From Candidatus Woesearchaeota archaeon (GTDB lineage Archaea; Nanobdellota; Nanobdellia; Pacearchaeales; GW2011-AR1), in assembly GCA_964494915.1 (NCBI GenBank), contig CAZBTP010000005.1, forward strand, positions 1 through 45,734: a stretch of 45,734 bases of DNA, in the 5' to 3' direction. Shown here piece after piece: positions 36,441 through 45,517 of this stretch. Position 1 is the first letter of the stretch. Every line of letters starts with the position of its first letter. A program made the position numbers and the translations under genes. The notes under the pieces were generated by a model. The model was given only the letters and a program-made list of their open reading frames with translations, did not search any database and had not been told where the DNA came from.

Positions 36441-37322
36441 ATGCAAAATCAGGAAATAAGTAAATTACTAAATATCCCATTTAATAGAACCTGTAAATGT
36501 GTAGGTAATCGTATAAACTGTCTAACGGCAAAAGAATGGTTAAAAAGTCAAATTGGTGTTTGGCAATTTTTCTATGAAAAAAGAGATATTAGAGACAAAG
36601 AGGTTCATCCTGCTACATTTCCAATTTCATTATCTACTAAAGTCATTGAATTATTTACTCATAAAGGAGAATTAGTTTTAGACCCTTTTGTAGGGAGTGG
36701 TACAACGCTGATTGCCGCACAAGATATTGATAGGTCTGCTGTCGGTTTTGATTTGCATAAAAAGTATATTGATTTATGTAAAAAAAGATTGTCAACAACA
36801 CGTCTTATGGGCACATCAAAACAAGTTGCTTTGATGGATGATGCACGAAACATCAATTCCTATTTAGAGAACGAATCAGTTGGTTTAATCTGGACATCTC
36901 CGCCTTATGCAAATCTATTAAACCGGCCAAGAAAGAATAAATCACGTAGAGACAGAGATAATAGACAACTTGGCAAAGTAGAACAATATTCACAAGACCC
37001 AAATGACCTTGGTACATTAGAGCTGGAAGAATATACTCAAGCTATGGGTGATATTTTTGAGAAATTACTACCTCTTCTCAAACCAAAGGGGCATTGTGTA
37101 ATAAACGTTCCAGATATGTGGTGGGAGAATAAAAGAATAACAATACACATTGCGTTGGTTGAAGAATTAAGAAAACGAGGTTATGAACTGCGAAACATAA
37201 TAATTTGGGACAGAACCAATGTTGTAAATGGAATAGGTATTTTTGGTTGGCCAAGTAATTACATCACCATGGGAGTTACATTTGAATATTTACTTGACTT
37301 CTGGAAACCTCCAAAAAATTAG
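36441..37322 (+). CDS. DNA amino-methyltransferase (N4-C-type SPPY)
   Basis: HPATFP, VLDPFVGSGTT (motif I) preceding TSPPY (motif IV). Confidence 0.92.
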   Translation: MQNQEISKLLNIPFNRTCKCVGNRINCLTAKEWLKSQIGVWQFFYEKRDIRDKEVHPATFPISLSTKVIELFTHKGELVLDPFVGSGTTLIAAQDIDRSAVGFDLHKKYIDLCKKRLSTTRLMGTSKQVALMDDARNINSYLENESVGLIWTSPPYANLLNRPRKNKSRRDRDNRQLGKVEQYSQDPNDLGTLELEEYTQAMGDIFEKLLPLLKPKGHCVINVPDMWWENKRITIHIALVEELRKRGYELRNIIIWDRTNVVNGIGIFGWPSNYITMGVTFEYLLDFWKPPKN

Positions 37323-37330
37323 GCGAAAAT

Positions 37331-38116
37331 ATGACTCAAACATATACGAAAGAAAAACTTATCGAAAAATTGAAAGAGATTCGTGCTAAAGGATGGATTG
37401 AAAACGCACGTCCCGGAAATGTTGGTGGAATAGGAAATACAGTTGAGGATATTCTCGGAATAAAGGAAAATAACCTTCCAATTCCCAATGCGGCTGAGTG
37501 GGAGTTGAAATGTCAGAGAATTGGAAGTTCTTCATTAACCACTTTATTCCATATGGAACCTTCACCACGAGCCTTGAATATTGTTCCTAATATTTTGTTA
37601 TTGAAGTATGGTTGGAAACATGAAGAAGCAGGTAAAAAATATCCCACAAACGAAATGAGTTTCAGGCAGACTATACATTGCTTATCAAGAAGCGACAGAG
37701 GATTCAAAGTAGTCGTTGATAAGAATTTAAAGAAGGTATTGGTCTCCTTTGATTCAAGTTCGGTTGAGGAAAGACATAAAAAGTGGCTGAAAACAGTAAG
37801 TAAAAGAATCGGTTTGAAAGAGTTGGAACCGCAACCATATTGGGGTTTTGACGACTTATTTCATAAAGCTGGAACAAAGTTGCTTAACTGTTTCTTTCTT
37901 CAAGCAAAAGTAAAGAAGGAAGGAGAAAAAGAACATTTTCTCTATGAAAAAATCTTAATGTTGAAAAAATTCAGTCTGGATAAATTCATTAAAGCTATTG
38001 AAGAAGGCGTCATTCTAGTGGATTTTGATGCCAGAACATGTCATAATCATGGAACAAAGTTTAGAATGAGGCAAGATAAATTACCTGTACTTTATGATCT
38101 TGTCGAAACAATATAG
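37331..38116 (+). CDS. MvaI/BcnI-family type II restriction endonuclease
   Basis: GGIGNTVEDILGIKENN, WELK, TTLF, HNHGTKFR; directly follows the MTase. Confidence 0.85.
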   Translation: MTQTYTKEKLIEKLKEIRAKGWIENARPGNVGGIGNTVEDILGIKENNLPIPNAAEWELKCQRIGSSSLTTLFHMEPSPRALNIVPNILLLKYGWKHEEAGKKYPTNEMSFRQTIHCLSRSDRGFKVVVDKNLKKVLVSFDSSSVEERHKKWLKTVSKRIGLKELEPQPYWGFDDLFHKAGTKLLNCFFLQAKVKKEGEKEHFLYEKILMLKKFSLDKFIKAIEEGVILVDFDARTCHNHGTKFRMRQDKLPVLYDLVETI

Positions 38117-40212: not shown

Positions 40213-41205
40213 TTAATATCTGAATTCTTCTTGATTCTTGAGCATAGCATAGATAACACAACACAATTTTCTTGCGGTTGCACAAATTGCTTTTTGCTTT
40301 CCTTTTTTCTTTGCAAGTTTTTTATAAAATTCCTGCAAAGGGTTGCTTTCTTTTGTCCTCACAATATTCCAGCAAGTTTCTATAAAAGTTGTTTTCAAAA
40401 CTTTGTTTGCTTGTCTGATCAGTTTCCCAAATCGCAAGGTGTTCCCAGATTGGTGGATACTTGGCACCAATCCTGCATAACTACAAAGTTTATCTGCCTT
40501 CGGAAATCTCTCAATTTCTCCGATTTCTGCAATAATATCCAATGATCTTGTTGTACCAATTCCAGGAATTGTCATGAGTAATTTTGCATTTTTGTCAGTA
40601 CAAGATTTTTCTGCAATTGATTTGTCTATTTCTTCTAACTTGTTTTTATGATACTCTAACAAGTCAAGATAGTGCAAGATTATTTTATCATCTGGAAATT
40701 TTTCTCTTATCCACAATATTGCGCTCTCGCATAAAGTTGCATAACCAAGTTCAACTCCTCTTTTTATCAGAATTGCGTGAATTTTATTTTTGATCTGTGT
40801 AGTCTGTTTTACAAATGTTCTCCTTTCCCTTGTTATTTCACGCAATCTCCTAACATCTTTTGGAGGAATGTAACTCTCTGCAATTAGATTTGCTCTTAGC
40901 AAATCTGCCAAAGTTGATGCATCAACCGAATCCGTCTTTATCCTTGCTTCTGCAATTGCTCTTGTTCTTGACGGATTTGCAAGTTTAACTTCATACTTCT
41001 TAGCTTCAAGAATTTCATAGATATATTCCCAAACACACGTGCTTTCAATAACAACTTTAGTTTCTTCTGGTTTGAATCGCTGCATAAAACTTCCAAAGTT
41101 GTTTTCACTATTTGTGAATTTATCCTCGGCTAACTTGTTTCCTTGCTCATCTTTTACAACTGCAACAGTAAACTGTTTGTGTATATCCATTCCGATATAG
41201 TTCAT
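40213..41205 (-). CDS. IS110 family recombinase/transposase
   Basis: DEDD: IGMDIHK, VVIES, KTDSVDA; IPGIG; SYAGLVPSIHQSG; SD AGGAGG. Confidence 0.96.
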   Translation of the reverse strand: MNYIGMDIHKQFTVAVVKDEQGNKLAEDKFTNSENNFGSFMQRFKPEETKVVIESTCVWEYIYEILEAKKYEVKLANPSRTRAIAEARIKTDSVDASTLADLLRANLIAESYIPPKDVRRLREITRERRTFVKQTTQIKNKIHAILIKRGVELGYATLCESAILWIREKFPDDKIILHYLDLLEYHKNKLEEIDKSIAEKSCTDKNAKLLMTIPGIGTTRSLDIIAEIGEIERFPKADKLCSYAGLVPSIHQSGNTLRFGKLIRQANKVLKTTFIETCWNIVRTKESNPLQEFYKKLAKKKGKQKAICATARKLCCVIYAMLKNQEEFRY

Positions 41206-41391
41206 TTTCTTTTGCCTCCTTTCAGCTAATAACTGCTGATTAAAGCTTTCAGCTTTAATCTAATTTTCTAGAATTCTCATATCATCTAAGTAGACACCCT
41301 TTATAGCTACTATAATACAAGAATGACTCCCCGAATTTTCTGTAAAAAAAGTAACCTAAATTAAGGACTTATTTTAAAAAGCCGCCAGAAC

Positions 41392-41407
41392 AATAAATTA
41401 TATAAAG
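41392..41407 (+). promoter_or_regulatory. BRE/TATA promoter for the precursor-peptide operon
   Basis: AATAAA-TTATATAAAG about 25-30 nt upstream of ATG 41429. Confidence 0.55.
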
Positions 41408-41428: not shown

Positions 41429-41578
41429 ATGGAAAACCTTGAAAGAACTTTGGAAAAAGTTGAACTAAAGACAGAGGAAGCAAAGCCTTTGACTATGGAG
41501 AAACCACTTTATAAAGGACTCCGAAAGGTGGAAGACAAGCCTTACCTTGGCGGTACGGGCGTTAGGTATTGGATGTAA
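41429..41578 (+). CDS. Putative RiPP precursor peptide (49 aa, below ORF-track cutoff)
   Basis: MENLERTLEKVELKTEEAKPLTMEKPLYKGLRKVEDKPYLGGTGVRYWM; first ORF after the TATA box, 19 bp before the prenyltransferase-like gene. Confidence 0.75.
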   Translation: MENLERTLEKVELKTEEAKPLTMEKPLYKGLRKVEDKPYLGGTGVRYWM

Positions 41579-41597: not shown

Positions 41598-42482
41598 ATG
41601 AATAATTCTGTTAGCTGGGCTAGTAAGGAGACTGAAGATTTAGTAGATGGAGAATCCTTTAAATTAAAGAGAACGAGAGAATTTGTTTCTAGAAGATTGG
41701 GTGTAAGCGATAATGAGATTATAAAAGAAGATTTAGGTTTTGTTGCAATGCCTGAAATTCTATCCGCTCAGTATTGTGCTCTCTCCGGAAATATGCATTT
41801 ACTTGAAATTTCTCCCCCTTTACAGGCTTTTTTATCCTATGCTATTTCTATTTATGATATTCTTTCGGATAACCATTTGTATAAAAATGGAAAACCAACT
41901 TTTCTAAAGGCTTACGGAAGAGATGCTGTTTTGATTGCGGAAGGAATGTATAAAAAAGTTATACGGGAACTCTCTATGGAATTAGGAAAAGAAGTGTTTA
42001 GGGCTGCTAAAATTGTAGATGAAATGTATTATGGTACAATAAAATTGGACAAAGTAAGGAATAGCAGAATAGTTAGTCCTTCTGAGGCTTTTTTATTACA
42101 AGATAAATTAGCTGGTGAACATGCTTACAACATTGCTGTTTTATCAAAAGCTGAAGAATTGGGCAGGTTTTCTTCTCACCTTGTTAATGCAATGACTACT
42201 CTAGAAGATTTGATAGATCTATTCGGTGGAGAAGATTTTACTGGGAGTAAAACGACCGTACCTATTGCATTTCTAGCTGAAGAGTTTGGTTATGTTCCTG
42301 AAGAAATTCCGACCATCAAGAAGTCCTTAGCAATTAAAAGAACAAAAGAGTATATAAATAGACAAATAGCAAATTGCAGAAGAGCATTGCCTTCCGGTGA
42401 AACATCAAGTAGAGGCCTATTACTAAAAATAGTTGAAGATATGGATAATTTTAATAGGAGATTTCCGGAGGGGTATTTATGA
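41598..42482 (+). CDS. Class I isoprenoid-synthase-fold protein, ComQ-like putative peptide prenyltransferase
   Basis: Degenerate FARM SIYDILSD...KNGKPT..KAYG..AVLI; SARM-like LEDLIDLFG..D....KTTVPI; start re-placed at ATG 41598. Confidence 0.7.
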   Translation: MNNSVSWASKETEDLVDGESFKLKRTREFVSRRLGVSDNEIIKEDLGFVAMPEILSAQYCALSGNMHLLEISPPLQAFLSYAISIYDILSDNHLYKNGKPTFLKAYGRDAVLIAEGMYKKVIRELSMELGKEVFRAAKIVDEMYYGTIKLDKVRNSRIVSPSEAFLLQDKLAGEHAYNIAVLSKAEELGRFSSHLVNAMTTLEDLIDLFGGEDFTGSKTTVPIAFLAEEFGYVPEEIPTIKKSLAIKRTKEYINRQIANCRRALPSGETSSRGLLLKIVEDMDNFNRRFPEGYL

Positions 42483-43138
42483 TTTATAAAATAGATGTAA
42501 AGATTAAGGGATGTAAATCGTTAGAAGACGTAGAAAAATTCATGGAATTAAATAAAGTCAAAATTATCTTTTTTGCCGAGACACATGGTATTCTAGATGA
42601 ATTAATAGTTCAAGATAAGATAATCTCGCAGCTAAAACCAACATGTTATCTTTATGAACTTCTTGAAGAAGAAAAGCTAATTTCCAAAATAGATTTTATT
42701 AGGTTTCTAGAAAAGAAAGATTCAGAGAGATTCTCCATAATTTCTTCTTTTGGAGAATTAAAACCAACCGTTCACATAGCTAAAAAATATAATCTGCCTT
42801 TGATCGGATGCGATGTAAAAGATATGTACAGAAAAATCAAAGACTTTTCAAAAGAGATTGACAAAACTGAAGAAGAAAAAATTATGTTGAAAAGAGAGAA
42901 AAAGCAAATTGAGGTAATTAAAAACTCTTTGATTCAATATGGTATTCCAATTTTTGTTTCAGTAGGGGCTTTTCATTTAAGAAAAGATTCGCCGCTATTT
43001 AAGGAAATTGAATTAAACCATATTATTGTCTATCCTTTAATTGATGATATGAAATTGGAAGATTTAGAAGAGAATTTTAATATAAAAGATTTTAAAAAAG
43101 TTACTTATATAATAGAGTCGGATAAAAATGGCAATTAA
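42479..43138 (+). CDS. TraB/Tiki/ChaN/EreA-superfamily putative metallohydrolase
   Basis: IFFAETHG, YLYEL, LPLIGCD, RE, VSVGAFHL. Confidence 0.6.
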   Translation: MIYKIDVKIKGCKSLEDVEKFMELNKVKIIFFAETHGILDELIVQDKIISQLKPTCYLYELLEEEKLISKIDFIRFLEKKDSERFSIISSFGELKPTVHIAKKYNLPLIGCDVKDMYRKIKDFSKEIDKTEEEKIMLKREKKQIEVIKNSLIQYGIPIFVSVGAFHLRKDSPLFKEIELNHIIVYPLIDDMKLEDLEENFNIKDFKKVTYIIESDKNGN

Positions 43139-44138
43139 ATTGAAAATTAAAGATTCTTTGTATATTTTGAGAGACTCCGAAGATAACTATATCTTTATTT
43201 CAACTGCAACACGAAGGGTAACGAAATTCCAAGTAGACCCACTAGTGAAGGATGTGATTAGTTCTCTTGAATCAGAATCTTTAGAACAGGATTTAGTTGG
43301 GAAACTATCCGGCAAGCATAATGTTCGAGATATAAATTTATGTTTGCAGGCATTAGAAAAAGAAGGAATAATAAGAAAATATGATAAAGATTTAAAAGAA
43401 GGCAGACATCATAGACAATTATTATTCTTAGACGAACTAACTGATTCAAGGGAAGATACCTTGGAATTACAAAACAGAATAGAAAATTCTAGAGTTGCAG
43501 TTTTTGGCGTTGGCGGAATTGGAACGTGGATTGTAAATGGTTTATATCAAATTGGTGTGGGGGAAATAAGAATTACTGATCCTGATTTTGTAGATGAGGG
43601 CAATTTAAATAGACAACTATTTTTTGATTCTGGTGATGTTGGTAAGTATAAAGTTGATGTTGTAAAAGAAAAATTAAAAGATGCAAATATTGTACCTTTC
43701 AAGAAAAGAGTAGAATCAAACCAAAACCTTGAAGATATGATTTCTGGTTGTAATTTCTTGGTAAATTGTGCTGATTCTCCTTCTGTTACTGAAACAACAA
43801 AAATAATTGATAGATATGCCTCTCAAAAAGGGGTTGCATATTGTGTTGCTGGAGGATATAACTTACATTTAGGAATGGTTGGTCCAATTATCATTCCGGG
43901 AGTTACTAAAACCTTTGAGGATTTCATAGAATATCAGAAAGGGATGGACCCATTAAAGGATTTAGAAAAAATAAGAGATATTAGACAAACTGGAAATCTT
44001 GGACCAATTGCTGGAGCAGTAGCAAACATTCAAGTAATGGAAATTTTCAAATATCTTACAGGCAAGGGAAGAATAAACTTGAATAGATTTGCAGAAATAG
44101 ACTTTATGGATTTAGGAATTGAATGGAGAGAATTTTAA
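43128..44138 (+). CDS. ThiF/E1-like adenylyltransferase with N-terminal RRE-like wHTH (MccB/PaaA architecture)
   Basis: VFGVGGIG, DPDFVDEGNLNRQ, DVGKYKV, NCADSP; about 85-aa N-terminal three-strand/three-helix domain ending LEKEGII. Confidence 0.88.
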   Translation: MAIKLKIKDSLYILRDSEDNYIFISTATRRVTKFQVDPLVKDVISSLESESLEQDLVGKLSGKHNVRDINLCLQALEKEGIIRKYDKDLKEGRHHRQLLFLDELTDSREDTLELQNRIENSRVAVFGVGGIGTWIVNGLYQIGVGEIRITDPDFVDEGNLNRQLFFDSGDVGKYKVDVVKEKLKDANIVPFKKRVESNQNLEDMISGCNFLVNCADSPSVTETTKIIDRYASQKGVAYCVAGGYNLHLGMVGPIIIPGVTKTFEDFIEYQKGMDPLKDLEKIRDIRQTGNLGPIAGAVANIQVMEIFKYLTGKGRINLNRFAEIDFMDLGIEWREF

Positions 44139-44223: not shown

Positions 44224-44850
44224 GTGAAAATTAAAAAGTCAAGAAAGCGCGCACTATATTTTAGCAGTTTATTCACAGTTGCTTCACTGAATCTTGGGTG
44301 TGCGTTTGGTACTAGAAGCGTTAATGTCGCTTATGAAGATTGTGTTTCTTCTCCTTCTGCAACAACAATTGAAAGGGCCGTTTCTGTTGGCGAGTTTAAT
44401 CACACTCTCGAACTAGACAAAAAAGAACGCCCAATAATTGGTTGTGTTAGGAATGGCTACGGAATGCGTACTGCAAAGGTTGTAGCTAGCAATAATCCCA
44501 GTGAATGGGTAAAAGAGGCCTTTGCCAAAGAATTAAGGACAATGGGATATCAAGTTTCAAATGAGTCGGATATACGGCTTAATGGAACAGTTGTAAATCT
44601 TTATACAGATATGTACCTAAATTATGATTCAAAACTTTCTTTAAGAGTAAGGGTAAATCAAGGTGAGAGAGTCCATTATGATAAGATCTATGAAGGTAAC
44701 GCTAAAAAAATAGCTTGGTTTGTGACGCCAAAAGAATATGGTGACGTATCAAATAAAGCACTGCAAGACGTAATGAAAAAGGCTCTTCCTGAGATTGCTA
44801 GAACATTAGATAAACTAATACAAACAAGTAATGATAAACCTAAGATTTAA
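44224..44850 (+). CDS. Lipoprotein, YajG-like
   Basis: LNLGC lipobox; IGCVRNGYG; WVKEAFAKELRTMGY. Confidence 0.65.
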   Translation: MKIKKSRKRALYFSSLFTVASLNLGCAFGTRSVNVAYEDCVSSPSATTIERAVSVGEFNHTLELDKKERPIIGCVRNGYGMRTAKVVASNNPSEWVKEAFAKELRTMGYQVSNESDIRLNGTVVNLYTDMYLNYDSKLSLRVRVNQGERVHYDKIYEGNAKKIAWFVTPKEYGDVSNKALQDVMKKALPEIARTLDKLIQTSNDKPKI

Positions 44851-45517
44851 ATTCCGAAGAACTGCTCTATCTTTTTCTACACTGATAGCGCTGGCATCGG
44901 GTTGTGGCTATTCGCAAAGAGAAATGCCACAAATAGAAACAAATAAGTATGTCTACAAAGTAGAAGAAGGAGTAAGAATCTATGCCGAGCCATTTGATAC
45001 TGAAAAAGAATGTCGAAAAGTTTTCCAACACGACCTAAACAAAAAAGCATATCTCCCTATATTTTTAAGAATAGAAAATACAACAACCCAAGATATTAAA
45101 CTTGACCGAGATAATGTAGAATTTTTCTCAAGCAATAATACGCCTTGGATGCAGGTTCATGGCTCGAGAGTGGCGCGTAGTTATGAATCCGCAGGGAGTG
45201 CTAAATCAACACTTCTGGGATTTCTTTTCGGTGCGCTTTCTGGAATGTTATCCGCGCTTCAAGAACAACAAAACAATTACGAGCGTATCGCAGATTTCGA
45301 AACTAAAGGCTTGAATTCACTAGAATTAATTATCACAGAAGGTAGAGAAGAAGGCTTTGTATACTTCAAAGATAAAAAAGAACGTTCAATGAGTAAGGAT
45401 GAATTTGCAAGCGAGATTGTTAATGGTAAACTATTACTAAAGATATTAATTGAACAAAACAAAACCCGTGCTTATACATTTGATTTTAAAGCCCCTTCCA
45501 ATTGGGAGGAACGTTAG
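44831..45517 (+). CDS. Putative lipoprotein
   Basis: LASGC lipobox; overlaps the previous stop. Confidence 0.7.
   Translation: MINLRFKFRRTALSFSTLIALASGCGYSQREMPQIETNKYVYKVEEGVRIYAEPFDTEKECRKVFQHDLNKKAYLPIFLRIENTTTQDIKLDRDNVEFFSSNNTPWMQVHGSRVARSYESAGSAKSTLLGFLFGALSGMLSALQEQQNNYERIADFETKGLNSLELIITEGREEGFVYFKDKKERSMSKDEFASEIVNGKLLLKILIEQNKTRAYTFDFKAPSNWEER

Follow-up and report, generated by a model that had tools for sequence, protein, structure and literature searches.

A candidate peptide-modifying system of ThiF-like and Tiki-like proteins, joined in one subclade by a prenyl-synthase-fold protein, in DPANN archaea

What is made from a 49-residue peptide that is encoded directly in front of three enzyme genes in the small genome of an archaeon? 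This question is raised by contig CAZBTP010000005.1 (assembly GCA_964494915.1) of a Candidatus Woesearchaeota archaeon, of which positions 1 to 45,734 of the forward strand were analysed, the whole 45,734-nt stretch being referred to here as the window. The open reading frame (ORF) at 41429-41578 (+), with 49 codons and a stop, opens an operon of four genes on the same strand, in which it is followed by the genes of a 294-aa protein with a predicted prenyl-diphosphate-synthase fold (41598-42482, +), a 219-aa candidate hydrolase of the Tiki/TraB/ChaN superfamily (42479-43138, +) and a 336-aa ThiF/E1-like adenylyltransferase (43128-44138, +). A gap of 19 nt separates the stop codon of the peptide gene from the start of the 294-aa gene, the start of the 219-aa gene overlaps the stop of the 294-aa gene, and the 336-aa gene overlaps the 219-aa gene by 11 nt. 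A first-pass annotation, made from the letters of the window, had described the ORF as a peptide precursor with three KP units, a Gly-Gly and a C-terminal heptapeptide, and the sequence is as described (K19-P20-L21, K25-P26-L27, K37-P38-Y39, G41-G42 and the tail T-G-V-R-Y-W-M). The answer that we consider probable is that the peptide is a precursor whose leader docks on a domain of the ThiF protein resembling a RiPP recognition element (RRE; RiPP, a peptide synthesised by the ribosome and then modified post-translationally), and that its C-terminal carboxylate is activated by this enzyme.

The coding status of the ORF was evaluated with six distinct sequences of the peptide gene, for which the Nei-Gojobori ratio of the proportions of nonsynonymous and synonymous differences (pN/pS) was 0.22-0.53 in 15 of 15 pairs, and in the last eight codons pS amounted to 0.66 versus a pN of 0.12. 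A small homologous ORF is found directly upstream of the homolog of the 294-aa protein in all six related metagenome loci. Judged by these comparisons, the ORF at 41429-41578 is a real gene under purifying selection and a member of a conserved family, and its annotation as a precursor peptide is upheld in outline. A profile of nine peptides was searched against a collection of 5.8 billion proteins and retrieved 242 homologs at E ≤ 0.01; unless another total is given, the conservation counts refer to the 119 full-length peptides among the 120 listed of these homologs. A further 18 peptides (giving a pool of 137) were left out, since they had been selected by a pattern that already required T...(Y/F)WM.

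Within this family, the C-terminal tail T43-M49 (41555-41575, +) stands out and is the likely modified core. Thr43, Trp48 and Met49 are present in 119/119 peptides and Tyr47 in 118/119 (one Phe), while position 46 is occupied by Lys (106), Arg (9), Val (2) or Met (2) and position 44 by Ser (105), Gly (13) or Asn (1). The penultimate position of the Trp, pointed out in the first-pass annotation, is therefore an invariant feature, and the Trp is the only one of the peptide in 114 of 115 sequences. The commonest tail is T-S-I-K-Y-W-M (95/119), the tail of the window being shared by 3/119. The exact limitation of the core to seven residues, as given in the first-pass annotation, was not borne out, as the conserved C-terminal block may begin at Y39 or G41 rather than exactly at T43. 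Acidic side chains are lacking in this block, which leaves the alpha-carboxylate of Met49 as its sole candidate carboxylate. The homologs are 43-57 aa long, with leaders of about 36-50 residues, the middle of which is variable in sequence and length. The conserved leader positions are Y28 (119/119), G30 (118), L31 (108, with Phe in 11), E35 (106), D/E36 (115) and Y39 (114).

The KP units and the Gly-Gly, by comparison, are features of the window copy and its near kin and, as far as the alignment tells, a lineage-specific decoration. Every Pro of the window peptide (3/3) is preceded by Lys, and three KP occurred in 198 of 100,000 shuffles of the peptide, so that the pattern is unlikely to be due to chance within this single sequence. 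However, three KP[LYIF] units were found in 1/119 homologs, which is the window peptide itself, and while 79/119 retain P26, the third Pro is kept in 9/119. Thr43 is preceded by Gly-Pro in 51 peptides, by Gly-Gly in 42, by Ser-Gly in 11 and by another dipeptide in 15. The alignment of homologous precursors, which had been proposed as a check, gave a divided result, with the Trp conserved and neither the KP repeats nor the Gly-Gly. The family also lacks the constant Gly-Gly of ubiquitin-like and sulfur-carrier proteins (ThiS, MoaD, SAMP), as shown by the same counts of GG, GP and SG, and that of double-glycine leaders, position -1 before Thr43 being Pro in 52/119 and Gly in 62/119 (no C39 peptidase search was made). 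For the mining of relatives, Y-x-G-(L/F)-x-x-x-(E)-(D/E)...T-x-x-x-Y-W-M at the C-terminus is a useful signature, and KP repeats and Gly-Gly are unsuited as landmarks.

The enzyme expected to act on this tail is the 336-aa protein, which matches PF00899 (E 8.3e-39) with its residues 113-330, the adenylation domain (43464-44117, +). Its AlphaFold2 (AF2) model has a predicted local distance difference test (pLDDT) score of 90.2 and contains an N-terminal domain (residues ~1-90, 43128-43397, +) with four strands (4-35) and three helices (38-78), which is RRE-like according to the model and its structural matches. The best matches in the PDB, MccB (3h5n, E 4.6e-20, TMq 0.75) and PaaA (5ff5, E 1.4e-19), extend over about 345 columns, as opposed to only about 250 columns for the ThiF and MoeB structures. 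Because of these whole-length matches, the protein is seen to share the layout of E1-like enzymes that modify RiPPs and have a domain for peptide recognition fused to them, in agreement with the earlier description of a ThiF protein with an RRE. In 31 ThiF sequences of the family (44-100% identity), G127, G129, G130 and G132 of the glycine loop GxGGxG, D151, D153, N159, N161, R162, Q163, K175 and D216 are invariant, and the loop, D151, R162-Q163, K175 and D216 are presumably equivalent to the residues of MoeB that bind the nucleotide and Mg. No Cys is invariant outside the NC(A/T)D motif, and neither a rhodanese nor an E2 domain is fused to the protein. The window clade has lost two CxxC pairs, which are retained in the most distant members, L016 (2440-3483, -) and L017 (652-1704, +). 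One of these pairs is internal, the other belongs to a C-terminal extension, and they resemble the Zn site known from MoeB, ThiF and MccB.

In order to place the peptide on the enzyme, a complex of one ThiF chain (31-row alignment), ATP and the peptide (9-row alignment) was modelled in three runs with three controls. The interface score ipSAE was 0.62, 0.66 and 0.66 versus 0.00 for the best control, a mark reached by 116/157 solved complexes and 2/215 mismatched pairs, counts that are only a rough guide here as custom alignments were used and the ATP ligand was included. The pLDDT of the partner was at least 62 and the runs agreed in at least 70% of the contacts, so that this check, suggested in the first-pass annotation, supports binding. 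The confident interface comprises residues 26-39 and 47-48 of the peptide and residues 12, 20, 24, 26, 29-37, 39-40, 68, 71-72, 74-76 and 78-79 of the enzyme. These enzyme residues belong to the last strand and the third helix of its N-terminal domain, where the groove of a classical RRE is located. The model supports an arrangement in which the leader motif Y-x-G-L-x-x-(V/I)-E-(D/E) forms a strand against the beta-strand 31-37 and the third helix 66-79 of the enzyme. The predicted docking segment (residues 26-39, 41504-41545, +) has Y28-x-G30-L31-x-x-V34-E35-D36 at its heart, with the block Y28-G30-L31-E35-D36 central in the interface; it is marked by the invariant Y28 and by G30 rather than by prolines, and the KP repeats can no longer be regarded as a conserved recognition element. 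A second conserved leader block, M-E-x-L-E-x-T-L-E-K-V (residues 1-12, 41429-41464, +; L4 105/115, E5 107/115, T7 88/115, L8 102/115), lies outside the confident predicted interface with the ThiF enzyme.

A further question is which genes belong to the system. The ThiF protein was found in 1/60 relatives, in 4/400 other genomes sampled across the phylum, in 27/401 genomes sampled from the order and in 26/355 within the family of the window, and its close homologs come from Pacearchaeota, Woesearchaeota, Nanoarchaeota and archaeon GW2011_AR19. Judged by these genomes, the system has a wide but patchy distribution among DPANN archaea (Nanobdellota/Nanoarchaeota, Pacearchaeota/Woesearchaeota-type). 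The Tiki-like gene adjoins the ThiF gene in every locus read. A peptide gene directly precedes the enzyme genes in 6/6 metagenome loci and in 3/3 distant loci with readable upstream DNA, and it is placed directly upstream of the enzyme pair in 23/25 further loci. Of the remaining two, one has a Tiki gene that is split and the other is a ThiF pseudogene. The gene of the 294-aa protein is present in eight distinct loci (the window, five metagenome loci, with two near-identical contigs counted once, and two genomes), where it is always closely packed between the genes of the peptide and the Tiki-like protein. It occurs in 3/27 ThiF-positive genomes of the order and is missing from 23/31 distinct readable peptide-ThiF loci. 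Since it accompanies only 8 of 31 loci, we regard peptide, Tiki-like protein and ThiF as the conserved system and the prenyl-synthase-fold enzyme as an add-on of a subclade, and not as part of the core.

Several of these loci show peculiarities of their own. In the decayed copy L048 (G610:C9, 3151-3728, -), the Tiki-like gene is split into two ORFs and T-H-G reads T-P-G; no peptide gene was found within the ~670 nt left before the contig end. The ThiF match in L045 (G586:C18) contains three stop codons. The order in L015/L028 (G091:C3) is peptide, ThiF, Tiki-like, as opposed to peptide, (prenyl-like), Tiki-like, ThiF in all others, and the gene call of the Tiki-like ORF in L044 is on the strand opposite to ThiF and peptide. 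As a possible trace of adaptation to the prenyl-like gene, the Gly at position -6 of the tail (T-G instead of T-S) was considered, which is found in 5/8 loci with this gene and in 0/23 without it. The association was not counted as co-evolution, because the five are close kin and the three more distant loci that possess the gene (L006, L046 and L047) have Ser.

The second conserved enzyme, the 219-aa protein, is a candidate member of the TIKI superfamily (Tiki, TraB/PrgY, ChaN, erythromycin esterases, RRSP) according to weak Pfam matches to two families and a set of invariant residues. The matches, all below the curated cut-offs, are to Cofac_haem_bdg in 7/10 members (best E 0.00088) and to TraB_PrgY_gumN in 5/10. 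A PDB profile search with the alignment found nothing. In all ten members, H36, E60 and H166 are invariant and position 34 is Glu, Asp or His. According to the available text on the TIKI enzymes, active members have a set of two His and two Glu and hydrolyse peptide or ester bonds (PMC6254334), and the residues named fit the order and spacing of this set. In the family of the 219-aa protein, an (E/D)-x-H near the N-terminus is followed by the invariant Glu ~24 residues further on and by a G-A-x-H-L another ~106 residues on, and this spacing corresponds to that of the set in RRSP (PMC6254334). In the protein atlas, the nearest neighbours are the archaeal cluster of the protein itself (0.93) and a viral cluster (0.90), while clusters of ChaN and HopBA1 score below 0.9 and serve as leads only. 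The viral cluster is labelled Uroviricota, and a scan of viral contigs with the ThiF profile revealed no relative. The Tiki-like protein is most simply a candidate leader peptidase, with an Ere-like esterase as a live alternative.

The 294-aa protein has no match in Pfam or NCBIfam, PF00348 included, and was recognised by its predicted structure. The Foldseek matches listed for its AF2 model (pLDDT 86.6) are all trans-isoprenyl diphosphate synthases, with E-values down to 7.7e-6 and a TMq of 0.69-0.73. A single-sequence search of the PDB gave only polyprenyl synthases (E 0.09-1.5) and a PDB profile search with the family alignment found nothing. The family is rare, with 32 representatives at E ≤ 1e-3 among 1.84 billion; the gene was not found in the 60 relatives searched, and a profile scan of the genome contigs gave one weak match in L008, a Nocardioidaceae metagenome-assembled genome (29% identity, residues 147-253). 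In 21 members (25-70% identity), D87, D91, H93, T101, D151, R154, D213, K218 and T220 are invariant and D204 is kept in at least 90%, while the canonical DDxxD has another residue in place of its first Asp (Y/F/N/H-D-x-x-x-D). The presence of a prenyl donor in the window organism is plausible, as its genome contains one canonical polyprenyl synthase elsewhere. A geranylgeranylglyceryl phosphate (GGGP) synthase was not found in this 92% complete assembly.

ComQ and PalQ are described in the available text of PMC10853753 as Trp-specific peptide prenyltransferases of the isoprene-synthase fold, which act on C3 of the Trp. As in ComX/ComQ and PalX/PalQ, an isoprenoid-synthase-fold gene stands here beside the gene of a peptide of ~50 aa with a conserved Trp 1-3 residues from the C-terminus, and D-x-x-x-D is combined with a second acidic motif, formed by D87/D91 and D204/D213 compared to D89/D93 and D200/D204 of PalQ (PMC10853753). 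The systems differ in that no histidine-kinase partner gene was seen beside the loci read, in the archaeal host and in the ThiF enzyme, which is present here and not reported for ComX/PalX. The comparison with ComQ/PalQ covers the fold and motif descriptions. On these grounds, the 294-aa protein may be a peptide prenyltransferase of the ComQ/PalQ kind, encoded by an accessory gene of the subclade, and the prenylation assumed in the first-pass annotation has a neighbouring enzyme with a predicted fold that suits it.

We think it unlikely that the prenyl-synthase-fold protein is instead a divergent chain-elongating or terpene-type enzyme of small-molecule metabolism that was inserted into the operon by chance. 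Such an origin would suit the absence of the gene from most loci, and the residues of the diphosphate-binding type of isoprenyl diphosphate synthases are kept. However, an insertion by chance agrees poorly with the position of the gene, which is the same in 8/8 loci that possess it, and with a very rare family that was met only in this context. The missing match to PF00348 and the replaced first Asp of DDxxD point away from a conventional synthase, and an invariant Trp close to the C-terminus is common to this peptide, ComX and PalX.

The chemistry that the ThiF enzyme might perform on the peptide can be approached by comparison with the ThiF-like RiPP enzymes, a recently recognised group with five characterised chemistries, all of them bacterial in the available literature. 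As far as this is covered by the available text of PMC12150305, PMC12596934 and PMC12250964, all characterised members adenylate a carboxylate, which is then attacked by a nucleophile: the Asn amide (MccB), a backbone or side-chain amide (PaaA), a Cys thiol (GrcB) or the Trp indole N1 (IndF), EnfB being left unresolved there. The substrates IndA and EnfA have, according to the same sources, a conserved Trp near a hydrophobic C-terminus (PMC12150305; PMC12250964). The closest parallel is the IndA/IndF/IndP system of Streptococcus pneumoniae (PMC12150305), with which the window locus shares a short precursor whose conserved Trp stands close to a hydrophobic residue at the C-terminus, an RRE-ThiF fusion with a fold like MccB/PaaA and a leader predicted on the RRE, a hydrolase gene in the minimal cluster, and the expected adenylation of the C-terminus with internal capture. 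The comparison with IndF covers the fold and published descriptions. In contrast to the Ind system, the host is a DPANN archaeon and not a member of the Lactobacillales, a transporter is missing and a prenyl-synthase-fold enzyme is added, the Trp is at position -2 and not at -4, the C-terminus is Met, and the candidate hydrolase is Tiki-like and not of the M16 type. MccB/MccA (microcin C) and PaaA/PaaP (pantocin A) correspond to the best whole-length structural matches and share the conserved adenylation residues. However, a C-terminal Asn is found in 0/119 peptides, all of which end in Met, so that the succinimide or phosphoramidate route of microcin C is not available, as the first-pass annotation rightly concluded in stating that the chemistry of MccB cannot apply unchanged. 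The peptide family also lacks the Glu-Glu core of PaaP, and the Zn-binding CxxC pairs are absent from the window clade and kept only in the distant L016 and L017.

Following this comparison, we propose that the invariant Tyr-Trp-Met-COOH end would reach the adenylation site, probably in the other subunit of a dimer, as in the model of IndF, where the alpha-carboxylate of Met49 would be adenylated with ATP/Mg. A nucleophile of the peptide itself would then attack the acyl-adenylate, closing a small ring at the C-terminus with the loss of water. Lys46 and Ser44 are unlikely nucleophiles because they are not invariant. Capture by the hydroxyl of Thr43, which would lead to a 7-residue macrolactone, is our tentative first choice. 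A lactone ring of this size is of a kind common in depsipeptides. It is preferred because an N-acylindole of Trp48 and Met49 would form a 9-membered ring and, in the subclade with the prenyl enzyme, would conflict with C3-prenylation of the same indole. Capture by the indole N1 of Trp48, as in IndF, giving an indolylamide, is accordingly an improbable outcome, and a ring of the IndF type is also unlikely because the Trp is at -2 and not at -4. What remains of the expectation is shared by an amide and other internal or external captures. The Tiki-family hydrolase might then remove the leader between Y39 and T43 or, alternatively, reopen the ester. In the window subclade, the ComQ/PalQ-like enzyme would add an isoprenyl group, most likely to Trp48, since this is the only Trp of the peptide. 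The first of the two models of the first-pass annotation, in which the tail is both prenylated and modified by the ThiF enzyme, hence stays the best reading in outline.

Another possibility, which we judge improbable, is that the ThiF enzyme activates the C-terminal carboxylate without forming a ring and passes the adenylate to an outside nucleophile. This could result in C-terminal amidation, a thiocarboxylate, a nucleotide adduct or a Cap2- or E1-like conjugation to an amine on a different molecule or protein, with the Tiki-like protein acting as a transferase, a hydrolase or an enzyme of reversal. All such outcomes are known for E1-like enzymes according to the available text of PMC12596934, EnfB is reported as either cyclising or amidating (PMC12250964), TIKI enzymes cleave both peptide and ester bonds (PMC6254334), and the lack of a conserved transporter in the loci suits an intracellular role. 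The family, however, has neither the additional invariant Cys nor the fused rhodanese or E2 domain discussed above, no sulfur-transfer or E2-like gene is conserved beside the ThiF gene, and the characterised RRE-bearing RiPP relatives all use an internal nucleophile in the available descriptions (PMC12150305, PMC12596934).

Far less probable is a role of the small ORF as an unmodified protein, be it in regulation, as an antitoxin-like partner or as an adaptor for the ThiF and Tiki-like proteins, rather than as their substrate. No product was observed and no transporter found, and the conservation is unusually strong for a RiPP core. On the other hand, the predicted docking is of the leader/RRE type, the invariance of the C-terminus matches the substrate logic of IndA, EnfA and MccA, and the adenylation residues of the ThiF protein are intact. 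Barely credible, finally, is the second model of the first-pass annotation, rejected here, in which a cut after Gly-Gly would expose a 42-residue leader-GG for adenylation like ubiquitin, ThiS or SAMP and release the prenylated heptapeptide as a by-product: Gly-Gly does precede the tail in the window and in 42/119 homologs, E1-type enzymes adenylate -GG ends and pro-forms trimmed to -GG are known, e.g. QbsE/QbsD, but Thr43 follows a Pro in 52/119 peptides and a Gly in only 62/119, conservation is highest in the tail and the middle of the leader varies in sequence and length, 42 residues are in our judgement not enough for a beta-grasp fold, the likeness of the enzyme over its peptide-binding domain is to MccB and PaaA and not to ThiF or MoeB, and the predicted docking places leader residues 26-39 on the RRE-like domain.

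Several points weigh against the proposed activation and cyclisation of the peptide. The nature of the modification, its position and the product are inferred. In the complex model, Y47 and W48 contact the RRE-like domain and the C-terminus is not placed in the active site, and the good docking score may partly reflect the likeness to solved RRE-leader and MccB-MccA complexes. In the study of IndF, a dimer was required for a productive model with the C-terminus in the active site (PMC12150305). The invariance of Thr43 could reflect the specificity of a protease and not a role as nucleophile; a cleavage exactly before Thr43 would in turn be unusual for a protease, because Pro precedes it in 52/119. 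Trp48 is one residue from the C-terminus, so that an IndF-type N-acylindole would be the strained 9-membered ring. The assignment of the Tiki-like protein is built on sub-threshold Pfam matches and look-alikes below 0.9 in the atlas. The prenyl-synthase-like protein, with no Pfam match and a likeness to ComQ/PalQ by fold and descriptions, could act on a small molecule instead. The flanks of the trio differ between the loci read and have neither a transporter nor an immunity gene nor any other gene in common, in contrast to the clusters of the ind, mcc and paa type. With 95/119 tails identical, a cofactor or a signal is a better fit than an antibiotic.

This near-frozen tail suggests that the product is a signal, a cofactor or a molecule of host interaction, in organisms with genomes of ~1 Mb that live attached to other archaea. 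It is doubtful, though worth stating, that some DPANN archaea make a lipopeptide of heptapeptide size, macrocyclised by the ThiF enzyme and prenylated at Trp, that serves as a ComX-like signal or host-interaction factor. If true, this would be the first prenylated RiPP of archaea and the first pathway to join carboxylate activation by a ThiF enzyme, a peptide prenyltransferase of the isoprenoid-synthase fold and a Tiki-family maturation enzyme. Archaea are unmentioned in the available text of the two 2025 reviews of ThiF-like RiPP enzymes (PMC12596934, PMC12250964), of which one contains "prenyl" a single time and the other not at all, and the global mining of these enzymes covered bacterial RefSeq only (PMC12150305). 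The available text of a survey of archaeal RiPPs mentions neither ThiF nor prenyl. A literature search for the 7-mer tail motif gave no match, the shorter strings being unrelated among the matches listed, and nothing relevant was among the matches listed for ThiF together with names of DPANN lineages. The three-gene version is present in about 7% of the sampled genomes of one DPANN order (27/401), and the system could reveal a new ring chemistry of ThiF enzymes as well as a new family of peptide prenyltransferases. With three or four small genes and a peptide of 49 residues, it offers a cheap and direct experimental entry.

Upstream of the peptide gene, a conserved A/T-rich element (ACAATAAA-n-TATA-like; 41390-41407, +) is a candidate archaeal promoter with B recognition element (BRE) and TATA box. 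Its TATA-like octamer begins 30 nt before the ATG of the peptide in the window and stands at -30/-29 in 5/9 loci compared, with near-variants at the same place in L002 and L015 and none in L016 and L018. A distance of ~30 nt from TATA to the start codon is usual for archaeal promoters with a leaderless transcript. The spacing makes a leaderless or nearly leaderless peptide transcript a candidate, the promoter function being assumed from the sequence. A GGAGG upstream of the ATG was considered as a ribosome-binding argument and dropped, since it is not conserved in the other loci. The start of the next gene is affected by an overlap: a long ORF call of the prenyl-like gene, with a TTG at 41547, overlaps the peptide tail in another frame, and public gene calls in distant loci contain spurious N-terminal extensions of the prenyl-like protein from the same overlap. 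The alignment supports the ATG at 41598 as the start.

The window belongs to a genome of about 1.01 Mb in 49 contigs, and the stretch is present in four DNA runs, groundwater metagenomes of one study; no RNA run is among the listed sequencing runs that carry it. Directly upstream of the operon lies an IS110-family transposase (NF033542, E 3.8e-74; 40213-41205, -). The insertion appears to be specific to the window genome, because the closest related locus L007, with enzymes ~85% identical, has a different ORF of 146 aa in this place. Further upstream, a type II restriction-modification pair (36441-38116, +) consists of an N6/N4 DNA methylase (PF01555, E 2.7e-29) and, after it, an endonuclease of the MvaI/BcnI family (PF15515, E 1.9e-65). 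Because of this pair, the IS110 element and the patchy peptide operon, the region of 36-44 kb resembles an accessory island. Downstream of the operon, two overlapping lipoprotein-like genes (44224-45517, +), which are not kept beside the system in other loci, follow on the same strand, the first of them matching PF03923 (Lipoprotein_16, E 1.9e-8).

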